Shown here in pieces: positions 16,768 through 63,787 of a DNA stretch of 64,000 bases. The position numbers were made by a program, and so were the translations under genes. Source of the stretch: Desulfurococcaceae archaeon (GTDB lineage: Archaea; Thermoproteota; Thermoprotei_A; Sulfolobales; Desulfurococcaceae). Positions within the stretch are counted from its first letter, which is position 1. Each line of letters starts with the position of its first letter. The stretch lies in contig JAWAJB010000003.1 in NCBI GenBank assembly GCA_038888155.1, forward strand, positions 114,279 to 178,278. Reading direction: 5' to 3'. The notes below the pieces were generated by a model. That model was given only the letters and a program-made list of their open reading frames with translations. It ran no database searches and was not told the DNA's origin.

Positions 16768-17139
16768 CTCCCTATCGCGCAGTCTAAGCCTCTATTGGTT
16801 TAAGCGAGCTCTTCTAGATCTATAGTGGTAAGGGGAATCTACTTACTGGATATACTCAACGAGTTCAACGGCACCCGAAACAGCCCCGATCTTGAGTCGA
16901 TCGATCGCCTTCGGCTTTCCATAATCAACTACACCTCTCTCGCTATGGACTCTCCACATGAAGATTTTGCCAATGCTGAGGACCTCAGAGCCCTCTCTCC
17001 ATCATTCTTGCTTTGCACCTACTGGAGAACCCTTAGCCTATCACTATCATCACGGCTCAAGGGTTCAAAACTTCATGCAAATGCCTCGCTGTCCAGCCCA
17101 CGGCATTAGCTCATAAATAATGGGCAAGCATAAGTGTAG

Positions 17140-17214
17140 CGGGCCCGCCGGGACTTGAACCCGGGACCTCCGGCTCCGAAGGCCGGCGCCCTGTCCTGGC
17201 TAGGCTACGGGCCC
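17140..17214 (-). tRNA. tRNA-Arg (TCG), intronless, CCA not encoded
   Basis: GGGCCCGTAGCCTAGCCAGGACAGGGCG-CCGGC CT TCG GA GCCGG-AGGTCCCGGGTTCAAGTCCCGGCGGGCCCG cloverleaf. Confidence 0.97.
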
Positions 17215-33075: not shown

Positions 33076-33363
33076 GCCCGCGGGCGAGCTTTACGCGCCA
33101 AGTAGGGCAACCCGCTAGAGCCTTCTCACACCGGCTCCCACCGGTGACCCATGAACGCTGGTGTCCAGGGTTAGGTTGCTCCCTTCCGGGCCTGGCCAGG
33201 TTCCCCCAGCTAAGGTGGTTGACCCCCTCCCTCCAGAGGGAGCTCCACCTCCACCAGCCCCATGGGGCGGAGTTCACTGCCTGCATGTGAGGGATAGCGG
33301 GCGCCTCTACCTGACGCGTAATTGTCTGCCCTGGTAGTCCAGGGCCTACCCCTACCCGCGGGC
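33076..33363 (-). ncRNA. ffs: Archaeal signal recognition particle (7S) RNA
   Basis: GC-rich 288 nt with complementary ends GCCCGCGGG/CCCGCGGGC and helix-8 signature CCAGGCCCGGAAGGGAGCAAC on the minus strand. Confidence 0.93.
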
Positions 33364-61668: not shown

Positions 61669-61926
61669 CTACCGCTGGAGCAAGTTCCCATGGCCTAACC
61701 TCTCAATACTGCCCAACCGATCCTCTAGCTCCTTAACTTGAGCTAAGAGCCTATCGACCCGACCAAACAAGTCAGCAAACTGCTTTACCCTAGACCTAAC
61801 CTCTGAGTACCCGGGGAGAAGCTCCCAAACCTTATACGTACTACAGCCAAGAACTTCAGCAATCTGCTTATACGTATACCGTTTCTCAGTGGATGGCTGT
61901 TCATAGGCTTTCACTTTCTTTCGCAC
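61669..61926 (-). CDS. Small HTH plus coiled-coil protein
   Basis: YTYKQIAEVLGCSTYKVW HTH; heptad C-terminus; GGAGG RBS before GTG. Confidence 0.7.
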   Translation of the reverse strand: MRKKVKAYEQPSTEKRYTYKQIAEVLGCSTYKVWELLPGYSEVRSRVKQFADLFGRVDRLLAQVKELEDRLGSIERLGHGNLLQR

Positions 61927-62080
61927 TCAGCCTCCCAGCCGCCCACTTCTCAACGGCTTGTTCTTCCCCTGCCCCACCTGCGGGAGCGTGTCTCCAGCGG
62001 TTGCCCGCGGGTTCACCCAGCTCCCTGCGGCGAAGCAGAGTGCACGAGAGTCCCCCTCGCCACGCTCATCGAGTTCATCC
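61927..62080 (-). ncRNA. Candidate structured RNA / 5' leader
   Basis: About 67% GC; closing stem GAGCGTG/CACGCTC enclosing four hairpins including GCGG-GCAA-CCGC. Confidence 0.55.
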
Positions 62081-62148
62081 TTACTCCAATATTATCATTT
62101 ACGTAAAGACTTATAAGCTTTTCTGCAATACGTTGTAACGGTGGTGGT

Positions 62149-62295
62149 TTGCCAGAGGAGTATGTGTTCTATGCGAGGATCTCGAGGACAAGCCACGGTT
62201 TGCTATGCATCTACATACCCAAGCATCTCAGTGAGAGAATGAAGCACCTCCACAGAAGAGAGGTTGTTGTACGTGTCACAGTACCAGATGCATAG
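62149..62295 (+). CDS. AbrB/SpoVT-like microprotein (48 aa), not in ORF track
   Basis: TTG after GGTGGTGG; MPEEYVFYARISRTSHGLLCIYIPKHLSERMKHLHRREVVVRVTVPDA; overlaps the TnpB ATG at 62288. Confidence 0.7.
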   Translation: MPEEYVFYARISRTSHGLLCIYIPKHLSERMKHLHRREVVVRVTVPDA

Positions 62296-63382
62296 AGTCA
62301 GAGATGCTTCAAAGCTAGTAGAGTACGTAACGATAGTCGGGAGGTTTGAACCGCTCACCGAAGAAGACTACGTGAAGCTTGTGAGACTAGCACACGAGTT
62401 CAGGGAAGAAGTAACCTACGCTACGAGAATGATAGCAAAGGGTATAGACTCCAAAGTTGTTCTCAGAGAACTGCGGTCGATGCTTAACAAGGCGTACGGG
62501 GACTCGGCGTTCAGGCTTGCTAAATCCATAGTGGAGAGCGCTAGAGCAAACAACGGAAACCCGCTGAAGGTTGAAATCAAGAAGCTCTTCATAGTCTCAG
62601 AGGGTGAAGCAGGTAAGCAAGGTAACAGGAACGTGAGACTGGATGACTCCAGCAAGGTGAGGATCAGGTATCCGTACGACAAGTCGTGGCTCAGCTTCAG
62701 AGCAAGATTCGGAGAAAACTATATACCACTCGTCAGGGAGCTATCAGAGCTTGCTAAATCGAGGAAGTGTAGCTACGGTGTAAGAGTTGTCTTCAGAAAC
62801 GGTAGAATCTACCTCCACCTATCCGTGCCCGTAGAGCTCTACCTAAAGTACTTCAGGAAAGCTGAAGCCAGAGGGAGCTTAATTGCAGGCTTCGACCTAA
62901 ACAGCGATAGGATAAACATGGTGATAGTAGACAAATCTGGAGTTGTAAGGGATGTGAGAACTGAGTGGTTTCCCGAGGCAACATCACCTGGTTACCCAAG
63001 AAACAAAGCTAGGGTTGTTAGACTTCGAGCTCTCACAAGGTTACTCAGCTACGCATACCACCACGGTGCTGGTGTAGCTGTGTTCGAAGACCTCGATAAG
63101 ATCAAGTGGAGGAGGTTCACCAGTTCACCCAAAGCCAACAGGAAGATAGCCAAATTCGCAAAGAAACAACTACTAACACACGCAGTAGTCATGGGACTAA
63201 AGTACGGGTTTTAACCCGTACTAGTCGACCCCCGAGGAACCACGAGTTCATCCGTACACAGCACTGTAATGAAGAAGCATGGTCTAGACAAGCACACAGC
63301 GTCAGCGTACCTAATAGCACTCAGATACCTTCAGAACAGAAAGACAGTGAATAGCTACAAAGCATATAAACAACACAAATGA
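62288..63382 (+). pseudogene. tnpB: TnpB-like RuvC nuclease (IS200/IS605/IS607 accessory) with single in-frame TAA
   Basis: RuvC-I GFDLN, RuvC-II VFEDL; after TAA 63212-63214 the frame continues PVLVDPRGTT...HGLDKHTASAYLIALR (RuvC-III) to TGA 63380-63382. Confidence 0.85.
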
Positions 63383-63787
63383 ATATCAAAAAGAAAACTG
63401 CCTCTCTCCCTCAACACAGCATCATCGTACCTCCTCCTAGGCACACAACCACCCAATAAAACAGAACGCATACGTTATATAAAAATTATTATAAAACAAC
63501 CATCACACATAGCACTATCCGCAGGAGTGAAACAGCGGAGAGGCGGTTATGTGTGGTGTGTTTTTGAGTGATCTCCTCGGTTTTGCGGGTTTGTTCATGG
63601 GTTTGATTGCGTGTTTCTGCGCATGAGGTACTACCGGTTCCTACGTTAGTCTTTCTTGTTGTTCTTCATGGAGTTTTCATAGGTTTCACACTCGGTTATG
63701 CGCGACGTATACGATTCCTTCATAAGTCCTTCATGCTGTCTTCCTCGGGATTTAAGGAGGTTTTATAGAGGATTTATGAGTTGGAGT

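Follow-up and report, generated by a model that had tools for sequence, protein, structure and literature searches.

The window analysed here is a 64,000-nucleotide (nt) stretch of the genome of a Desulfurococcaceae archaeon. Near its right-hand end, a G+C-rich island lies between an open reading frame (ORF) with a weak resemblance to helix-turn-helix (HTH) proteins and a tnpB-like gene that points away from it. The initial annotation of this DNA described the island as a multibranched RNA, serving either as an atypically placed, divergently transcribed scaffold RNA of TnpB or as a cis-regulatory leader of the HTH gene. Our analyses place the island within a structured RNA gene that very probably belongs to a mobile element and partners the TnpB encoded by that element, and they favour the first of these two options.

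Organization of the locus

The island was correctly delimited by composition: 107 of the 160 nt at 61921–62080 are G or C, and G+C content in 100-nt windows peaks at 0.67 over the island, compared with 0.41–0.49 in its flanks and 0.475 for the window as a whole. The strings that had been named at 62061–62067 and 61984–61990, as well as a palindromic CTTATAAG at 62110–62117, are all found at those positions. The features of the locus are as follows.

61879–63402, no strand: tnpB-only mobile element of ~1524 bp whose ends resemble those of IS607; its plus strand opens with CCGTTTCTC and closes with AAAACTGCC, as defined by a copy in genome G032, by sharp homology boundaries and by an uninterrupted allele.
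61879–62090, minus strand: omega-like RNA gene (scaffold) of ~212 nt, defined by its fold, by covariation and by covariance model R1 (219.7 bits); its 3' end (..GAGAAACGG) is the end of the element.
62044–62081, minus strand: conserved 5' region of the RNA, GGAUGAACUCGAUGAGC..GGCGAGGGGGAC, mostly unpaired in the consensus, with invariant or near-invariant columns 10–40 of alignment A2.
61967–62040, minus strand: domain 1, a long irregular hairpin that combines the GGGAGC/GCUCCC helix with a UGAA/AGA internal loop and is topped by a GNRA hairpin (helices 3–7).
61878–61957, minus strand: terminal domain (helices 8 and 9, with 98.1% and 87.7% of cells paired and two-sided changes at 7 pairs).
61858–61878, minus strand: putative guide, that is, flanking DNA read through from the scaffold, beginning UAUACGUAUAAG..; suggested by the lack of a terminator run, by copy-specific flanks and by the GGG at the uninterrupted allele.
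62100–62129, no strand: palindromic promoter region (predicted), with the TATA box CTTATAAG at 62110–62117 and A-rich stretches resembling the B recognition element (BRE) on both sides.
62149–62295, plus strand: 48-aa ORF whose stop codon overlaps the ATG in ATGCATAG; conserved at the protein level in 12 copies.
62264–63382, plus strand: TnpB-like gene, assigned by its traits to the RHH/MazE-TnpB clade (RHH, ribbon-helix-helix), with an in-frame TAA at 63212–63214; 84% identical to the intact 372-aa copy of G032.
63380–63402, plus strand: right end of the element, ..TGAATATCAAAAAGAAAACTGCC, ending in a CC core (GG on the RNA strand), defined by 13 aligned right ends and the boundaries of multi-copy sets.

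Fold and covariation of the RNA

The segment 61879–62090 folds on the minus strand with a minimum free energy of −91.9 kcal/mol (z −3.87), which none of 200 shuffled sequences equalled. The claim of a structured RNA therefore holds for this full segment, and less well for the 165-nt stretch first proposed, which taken alone has a minus-strand z of only −1.88 and a plus-strand z of −1.28. Likewise, the extent first assigned to the RNA was right for the G+C-rich part and wrong at its left coordinate, the RNA reaching ~48 nt further, to 61879. Its 5' end is predicted to lie near 62085–62090.

Homologues were readily found, and their paired columns covary well above controls. In alignment A2, which holds 27 copies at 65–90% identity, RNAalifold predicts 36 pairs, 13 of them with compensatory changes. 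We also tested a 52-pair consensus on the same copies against partners slid by 1–3 columns: standard pairs fill 89.8% of cells in the consensus and 36.5–56.0% with slid partners, 23 pairs change on both sides compared with 7–10, and the covariation score of 0.302 compares with at most 0.099 for slid partners and was reached by none of 500 shuffles. Among 31 further R1 matches, located near tnpB relatives, 88.4% of cells form pairs and two-sided changes affect 45 of the 52 pairs; this alignment is biased towards the structure, having been fitted to R1. A scan for pseudoknot covariation was swamped by the phylogenetic signal of two subfamilies.

Within this fold, the terminal domain is closed by a stem between GCCGUU (61952–61957) and AACGGU (61878–61883), which surrounds an inner 12-bp stem (61936–61947 with 61888–61899) and a variable, A-rich loop containing AUGAA motifs. 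The GNRA hairpin that had been pointed out (GCAA at 62001–62004, minus strand) and the CUCUGC/GCAGGG stem are both part of the fold supported by covariation. The enclosing GAGCGUG/CACGCUC stem, on the other hand, is disrupted in close copies such as those at loci L027 and L028, RNAalifold pairing GCUCCC with GGGAGC instead, and the proposed AGCCG/CGGCU stem is absent from the consensus, where GCCGUU pairs with the 3'-terminal AACGGU. The GGAGG and GTG that had been taken for the ribosome-binding site and start codon of the HTH ORF belong to the mobile element, where they fall in a hairpin loop of the RNA that is variable and rich in indels, with ~20-nt deletions in L008, L038 and L046.

No Rfam family, HEARO among them, matches the island, even when the threshold is relaxed from the gathering score to E ≤ 10, and ARAGORN found no tRNA there; at six loci with partial matches to the island, Rfam returned only a nearby tRNA. 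Approximately 16 of the listed BLAST matches (e.g. L049 and L053) cover only the first 30–60 nt of the RNA (window 62020–62080) at 75–93% identity; the match at L053 runs on to window 62290. Such partial matches probably mark family members that have diverged too far in their 3' parts for blastn to align them.

Linkage of the RNA to tnpB

Scanning one genome per species, we recovered 38 loci with relatives at 36–100% identity, including loci from Thermococci, Bathyarchaeia, Caldivirga and the candidate Baldrarchaeota and Nezhaarchaeota. Linkage was counted at the 27 loci that hold the 5' end of tnpB together with upstream DNA. At 25 of them, an R1 match with E ≤ 1.5e-5 lies on the opposite strand, upstream of the gene, 24 by the standard search and one (L079) with filters off (24.1 bits, E 4e-6); the remaining two, both from Thermococci, have weak matches in the same place (E 0.002 and 0.021). 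The 5' end of every R1 match falls ~175–400 nt from the start of the protein match. The same divergent pair is present in two genomes of family f13 (2.8–2.9 Mb), with 40–43% protein identity.

The RNA is thus linked to tnpB and not to the HTH gene, and flanking sequences are unrelated in every independent copy. Taken together with the covariation, this argues strongly that the structured RNA gene belongs to the element and is the partner of its TnpB. Omega RNAs usually overlap or follow the 3' end of tnpB and share its strand. In this family, the RNA instead lies upstream on the opposite strand at 25 of the 27 loci; in the window, the canonical place (63240–63402, plus strand), with ~20 nt after the stop codon, folds no better than shuffled sequences (z +0.64). 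A literature search confined to openly accessible journals and, for PMC10691335, to the main text returned no report of a divergent or upstream guide RNA for TnpB. It is this layout, with an RNA that points away from the nuclease gene and exits through the opposite end of the element, that we did not find described for the family.

Boundaries, copies and derivatives of the element

The element is mobile, as evidenced by its defined ends, empty sites, multiple copies, derivatives resembling miniature inverted-repeat transposable elements (MITEs) and high identity across families. The G032 copy is collinear with it and 88% identical over exactly 61879–63402. A second copy in the same assembly as the window (G000, contig C98) is 85% identical, its homology running from 61878/9 into the tnpB region without 62074–62181. 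A further 14 loci show a sharp left boundary at the position of 61878/9, which in the window falls within the 5' end of the HTH ORF, and their flanks are unrelated except in one orthologous pair (L006/L016). The flanks of left ends are unrelated in 14 of 15 cases, as are those of 19 ends in the multi-copy set. On the other side, thirteen right ends stop at ..AAAC(A/T)GCC.

Uninterrupted sites were found for two insertions. For the G032 copy, G153 reads CATAA-GCC-CTC where the filled site reads CATAA-GCC|GCTTCTC..ACAGCC|CATTC, and the site in G154 has diverged to CATAA-GTT-CTC. For the window itself, contig C90 of the same bin (L167:1060–1400) carries an allele whose flanks are 97.5% and 96% identical to those of the window, with 26 nt between them (L167:1106–1131). 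Joints of both flanks in the DNA run X1 were rejected as clean empty sites, with 17–25 nt intervening; they represent the C90 allele and a variant of it.

Many copies are reduced. The deletion derivatives at L028, L031, L033 and L055 retain 61878 to ~62118 together with the last ~135 bp, and that at L030 retains 61879–62162 and 63169–63402. In multi-copy genomes, most copies measure 265–342 nt and consist of the RNA gene plus 60–110 nt, with no protein gene. Copies are 85–90% identical across genera and families. With the left end as query, BLAST matched 13 of 61 relatives and 46 of 325 genomes from the order; R1 matched 47 of 151 genomes drawn from across the class, with two matches in the genome of the window and a maximum of 13 in any one genome. 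The element is spread across archaeal orders and phyla. At loci that hold only the first 80–110 nt of the left end (L047, L051, L054, L042 and L013), no transposase gene lies nearby.

Two arrangements of copies were also observed. In G209 (L034/L077), two outward-facing RNA genes lie at 809–1019 and 1501–1713 on opposite strands, ~480 nt apart, one within a full element and the other solo. Furthermore, an orthologous insertion lies behind a gene for a major facilitator superfamily transporter in G000:C98 (L002/L016) and in G012:C1 (L006/L032). Both lack the stretch corresponding to window 62074–62181, which includes the promoter and the start of the small ORF, and since this gap is bounded by a TCGAG direct repeat, the insertion is best read as a promoter-less copy inherited vertically.

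Strand of the RNA and comparison with IS607 elements

Several features of the structure point to the minus strand. The apical loop has a GNRA sequence on this strand only (GCAA, GCGA, GUAA or GUGA in most of the 27 copies). Tandem U·G pairs, which on the plus strand would read as tandem A·C mismatches, are kept in 25 of the 27 copies, with C-G or U-A in the other two. Over all predicted pairs, G·U occupies 120 cells and A·C 23.

The strongest evidence on the strand comes from comparison with IS607 elements. L126 is a bona fide IS607 element whose TnpA matches NF033518 (1.7e-71) and which also encodes TnpB. At five serine-recombinase loci, R1 gives a weak, partial match to the 3' end of a canonical tnpB, ~1.3 kb beyond the recombinase gene and in all five cases on the sense strand of tnpA and tnpB. 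Four of these ends (L126, L122, L121 and L115) read ..GCCGUUGGG.., followed by a long stem with an A-rich loop and by GGGAC-AAACGG with CCGUU as its partner, beyond which the flanks are unrelated. The RNA of the window ends in the same manner, with GCCGUU.., a stem and loop, and ..CUGAGAAACGG, in which the last bases ..AAACGG are also the last bases of the element; position 213 of the R1 model corresponds to the last element base. Since the terminal hexamer, its pairing partner and the architecture are common to the co-directional IS607 ends, they fix the strand of the RNA. Together with the coincidence of the RNA 3' end and the element end, this match to the canonical IS607 omega-RNA region further supports the proposal of a divergently transcribed scaffold RNA.

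The similarity extends to the junctions. For the TnpB of the Clostridium botulinum IStron, an IS607-family system, one report describes a strict GG core, a TGGG target-adjacent motif (TAM) and a scaffold ending in UCGG, with the G at −3 discriminating self from non-self and so sparing the element's own copy (PMC10690162). Here, the junctions on the RNA strand read flank-(G)GG-CUGUUUC at the far end and ..GAGAAAC-GG-Y at the near end, so that both ends share a GG core, and there is no long target duplication; as in that omega RNA (also termed reRNA), the scaffold 3' end is the transposon end with the flank next to it, the scaffold ends in ..CGG, and the far flank tends to ..GGG. A G at −3 is present in 12 of 13 copies in the right-end alignment and in ~10 of 16 clear cases in the multi-copy set. 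As this G is not universal, the flanks by themselves do not define the TAM. On the RNA strand, the C90 allele reads ..GAGAAAGGG and then UAUACGUAUAGGCAG.., with GGG directly 5' of the flank, and differs from the read-through tail of the window RNA at one of the first 20 positions. Both ends of the element additionally carry AUGAAY motifs and GAAAC/GUUUC in inverted orientation.

There are also clear differences from IS607 elements and their omega RNAs. The RNA described here lies on the strand opposite to tnpB, at the upstream end of that gene, with what seems to be its own (shared, bidirectional) promoter; as it does not overlap the tnpB ORF, it cannot be carved from tnpB mRNA. There is no tnpA, and the protein comes from a distant clade without a zinc finger.

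Among the sequencing runs listed, four are recorded as RNA, all in the form of contigs. X12 and X20 are metatranscriptomes with a small word share, and X18 and X19 were flagged as probably DNA. X12 contigs cover the RNA gene at high word depth, which we did not use as evidence given that contig depth cannot rank parts and that a lack of coverage proves nothing. One X12 contig (depth 29.4, side 32 nt) connects 62084 back to 61961, a joint not listed for the DNA run X1. Read on the minus strand, this single contig of 85% likeness hints at a circular junction around the 5' region and the long hairpin, starting from the predicted 5' end; circular omega-RNA isoforms are reported from archaea (PMC12558985).

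The TnpB-like protein, the small ORF and the promoter

The tnpB-like gene of the window is disabled by a nonsense mutation (one TAA) rather than a frameshift. The G032 copy carries an intact 372-aa ORF (L004:1885–3003), the stop codon of which lies 20 nt before the right end. The 372-aa protein has no Pfam match of any kind and only sub-threshold NCBIfam matches (TIGR01765, 4e-9; guided_TnpB, 2e-7). Its family comprises 482 members at E ≤ 0.001, found in Desulfurococcaceae, Zestosphaera, Staphylothermus, Ignisphaera and Vulcanisaeta; a precomputed PF27229 label exists for the family and does not occur in the papers searched. Among 32 aligned members, D211, E275, D342 and H344 (GLDRHTASAY) are invariant, and there is no CxxC pair of the zinc-ribbon kind. 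An AlphaFold (AF2) model with a predicted local distance difference test score (pLDDT) of 87.5 found as its best solved Foldseek matches Cas12f (2e-9), Cas12k, ISFba1 TnpB (4.5e-6) and ISDra2 TnpB (~6e-6); a sequence-profile alignment to the PDB covers the RuvC-II region only.

Judged by sequence and predicted structure, the protein fits a TnpB/Cas12f-fold member of the RHH/MazE-TnpB clade that lacks the zinc finger, an assignment based on the GLDRH motif, the absent zinc finger and the small upstream gene. In Altae-Tran et al. 2023 (PMC10691335), this archaeal clade sits within RIIIr-4 and is crenarchaeal and euryarchaeal, its members lie downstream of a small AbrB/MazE or RHH gene, and they combine the loss of the C4 zinc finger with replacement of the RuvC-III Asp by His, all of which agrees with the locus described here; by the motif given there (DRDxN to DRHxA), H344 would occupy the RuvC-III Asp position. 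The same paper places the clade with exapted TnpBs that are not mobile. It proposes that the two genes act as toxin and antitoxin, would put the guide in a long 3' untranslated region, and states that guides were sought by aligning regions downstream of tnpB. In contrast, we find a bounded mobile element with MITE derivatives, ~20 nt after the stop codon, and an RNA upstream on the other strand.

A small ORF ends at or overlaps the start of tnpB at 25 of the 27 loci scanned. The ORF in the equivalent position of L095 is of the AbrB/MazE type (PF04014, 2.2e-12), and that of L079 gives weak RHH matches. The 48-aa ORF of the window matches no family; its AF2 model (pLDDT 90.6) has a dimeric RIFT-fold protein as its best Foldseek match (E 0.88). 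An AbrB-like identity was tried and rejected, hhalign against the L095 ORF giving a probability of 0.2% and a PDB sequence profile no match. Across L064–L096, the slot upstream of tnpB is filled by a 48–55-aa protein of the window type, by an AbrB/MazE-type protein (L095) or by an RHH-like protein (L079, L080, L082, L086, L087, L090, L093 and L096). On sequence grounds, unrelated small DNA-binding folds thus appear to have been swapped in the same slot beside the palindromic promoter. According to a recent preprint, the RHH protein Arc of IS605 elements represses the promoter of its own transposon (10.64898/2026.09.24.754181), and self-repression of this type offers an alternative to the antitoxin idea for the small protein.

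The promoter sequence ..ACAGAAAG.CTTATAAGCTTTTCTGTAG.. is conserved in 7 full-length copies that are otherwise 65–88% identical. The conserved start of the RNA lies ~25–30 nt to the left of CTTATAAG, and the small ORF starts ~32 nt to its right. By analogy with archaeal BRE/TATA geometry, we infer that 62100–62129 is a bidirectional promoter and likely an operator.

A proposed guide RNA reading out of the element

From these observations, we consider it likely that the island is the scaffold of an IS607-type omega guide RNA, with its own promoter and inverted relative to tnpB, carried by a non-autonomous IS607-like element. In the scheme that we infer, transcription would start on both sides of the palindromic TATA/BRE promoter at 62100–62129, rightward to yield the 48-aa protein and TnpB, and leftward to yield an RNA of ~210 nt. 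Since the RNA gene contains no run of 3 or more U, and the 178 nt beyond it none of 4 or more, the RNA should read into the flank; lacking a terminator of its own, it would run past ..AAACGG so that the flank becomes a guide specific to each copy. The TnpB-RNA complex would then recognise the element-free locus by (G)GG and the adjoining flank and cut it, whereas its own copy, with C in place of G at −3 (..ACGG before the flank), would be left intact. Finally, a serine-recombinase TnpA acting in trans would move both the element and its gene-less derivatives of 265–340 nt. Such a supply in trans is possible, as 169 of 325 genomes from the order encode small serine recombinases.

Guide RNAs of TnpB are usually assumed to occupy the 3' end of tnpB, to share its strand and to be cut from the tnpB transcript, and according to PMC10691335, large surveys have restricted the search for guides to sequence downstream of tnpB. 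If correct, our proposal would provide a counter-example, in which the guide scaffold of an entire archaeal clade forms a transcription unit of its own, oriented against tnpB and placed at the opposite end of the element. A clade filed as immobile and as a probable toxin-antitoxin system would become an active mobile system of the OMEGA (obligate mobile element-guided activity) kind, in which RNA and protein genes can uncouple and invert, a step towards separate units of the tracr/CRISPR type. It would also explain why gene-less copies made almost entirely of the RNA gene have multiplied, and would supply an RNA partner, a candidate TAM and candidate targets for a predicted hyperthermophilic nuclease of ~370 aa with an unusual active site.

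A number of findings weigh against this proposal. With regard to the RNA, G·U (25 cells) barely exceeds A·C (20 cells) among the 13 compensatory pairs, and as these counts are nearly equal, the argument for the strand rests mainly on the tandem U·G pairs, the GNRA loop and the IS607 comparison. The likeness to IS607 omega RNA is itself limited to the terminal domain (model positions ~145–205, E 0.003–0.12 in a 17-kb search), beyond which the two kinds of RNA do not align convincingly, and the two TnpB proteins are barely alignable (BLASTP E 0.12). The RNA libraries found consist of metatranscriptome contigs only, from which strand, transcription and RNA ends cannot be read, and neither an oligo-U terminator nor a processing site sets the length of the guide. 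The G at −3 is replaced in the window copy (A), in L163 (A), in L164 (C; same genome as L163) and in L161 (A). MITEs of the L028 type keep the TATA box, while the A-rich stretch that would serve as the leftward (right-hand) BRE is replaced. With regard to the proteins, the premature stop in the window copy means that this locus could act only through TnpB made elsewhere, and, as the RuvC-III Asp is replaced by His, nuclease activity is an assumption. Neither the element nor any copy examined carries a transposase gene; with no room for a serine-recombinase TnpA in 1.5 kb, the element does not encode TnpA as an IS607 element is expected to. Neither a Y1 TnpA nor a resolvase domain (PF00239) was found in the genome of the window, the assembly of which is 97% complete in 134 contigs and so does not prove their absence, and the R1 search found the full RNA at none of the 30 best serine-recombinase loci.

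Alternative explanations

An unlikely alternative is that the RNA is a genuine product of the element without being a guide, acting as a regulatory or antitoxin-like RNA in a toxin-antitoxin-like RHH/MazE-TnpB module, for instance by sequestering TnpB or as an antisense RNA against outside transcripts that enter the element. The sole paper found on the clade proposes a toxin-antitoxin system with TnpB as the toxin, together with a possible guide in the 3' region (PMC10691335), and both the imperfect conservation of the flank motif at −3 and the restriction of RNA data to contigs with unreadable RNA ends are compatible with this idea. It does not account for the exact coincidence of scaffold end and element boundary, for a terminal ..AAACGG shared with co-directional IS607 omega regions, or for the absence of an internal terminator. 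Gene-less derivatives of 265–342 nt, mainly made of the RNA gene, still spread, which is a better fit to a guide acting in trans than to a cis regulator, and the predicted protein has a full TnpB/Cas12f fold, every solved member of which among those listed is an RNA-guided enzyme.

It is distinctly improbable that the TnpB, with no zinc finger and a His-substituted RuvC site, and its outward-reading RNA constitute the mobility machine itself, operating by RNA-guided cut-and-copy homing or integration in place of a classical transposase. Such a reading is compatible with the lack of a transposase in the copies and in the genome of the window, and with the lack of the full RNA at the 30 recombinase loci, in spite of which the element has reached several archaeal orders and phyla. 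Were it true, the clade would represent a self-contained RNA-guided mobile element rather than an IS607 passenger.

More improbable still is a structure acting at the DNA level only, as a long sub-terminal region for recombinase binding or synapsis, with the RNA fold as a by-product. IS607 ends are long and bind several TnpA dimers (eLife 2018, PMC6188088), and AUGAAY and GAAAC/GUUUC do recur inverted at both ends of our element. Duplex binding sites, however, need no compensatory changes, yet 23 pairs in the first set of copies and 45 of 52 in the second change on both sides; loop variation confined to GNRA and the retention of tandem U·G pairs are features of RNA; and the right end, which would also need to be bound, has no such structure.

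Finally, the second option of the initial annotation, a cis-regulatory leader of the HTH gene in which an internal CUCCC masks GGAGG, draws on an 85-aa ORF with a weak HTH match that at this one locus starts at a GTG right after GGAGG, and it is rejected, because the RNA is found at dozens of loci whose flanks are unrelated, GGAGG and GTG fall within the deletion-prone loop described above, and the uninterrupted allele reads through with a different upstream part.

Comparison with other RNA-associated elements

Like the window RNA, the omega RNA of IscB/IsrB (HEARO) is encoded upstream of the nuclease gene (PMC10691335). The IscB RNA lies on the same strand as iscB and carries its guide at the 5' end, whereas the window RNA lies on the opposite strand and is expected to carry a 3' guide.

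The 265–342-nt derivatives, which keep both ends and the whole RNA gene, resemble gene-less mini-elements built on omega RNA, such as the PATE-like derivatives of IS200/IS605. They differ from these in having IS607-type ends and in that the RNA faces the end that lies upstream of tnpB in the parent element.

The bridge (seek) RNAs of IS110/IS1111 elements are likewise structured RNAs of ~200 nt, located in a noncoding end upstream of the only large protein. The partner in our case has a predicted TnpB/Cas12f fold and not a DEDD-plus-Tnp recombinase, and the RNA cannot set the target through internal loops, because the insertion sites are diverse while the RNA is nearly constant.

The interrupted HTH gene and its uninterrupted allele

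The HTH ORF (61669–61926, minus strand) represents the 3' portion of a gene that the element has split. It encodes 85 aa, the first ~16 codons of which are element sequence, and its match to HTH_23 is weak and below the cut-off (E 0.0028). In the C90 allele, the open frame runs for 132 aa with an N-terminal part that differs from that of the window ORF.

The 26 nt between the two flanks of the C90 allele begin with an end-like CCTTTCTC and finish with AACAGCTT, thus resembling both tips of the element, and they form an in-frame repeat of 7 codons (..LREKAVELREKG..). They may be a target that mimics the ends, a footprint, or a product of chance. The uninterrupted allele is in the same bin as the window, and the assembly measures 2.42 Mb with 6.4% contamination, compared with 0.9–1.5 Mb for congeners; the assembly therefore probably mixes two strains.

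Elsewhere in the window, Rfam and ARAGORN gave two matches in all, an archaeal signal recognition particle RNA at 33082–33351 (minus strand, 132 bits) and a tRNA-Arg(TCG) at 17139–17214 (minus strand).

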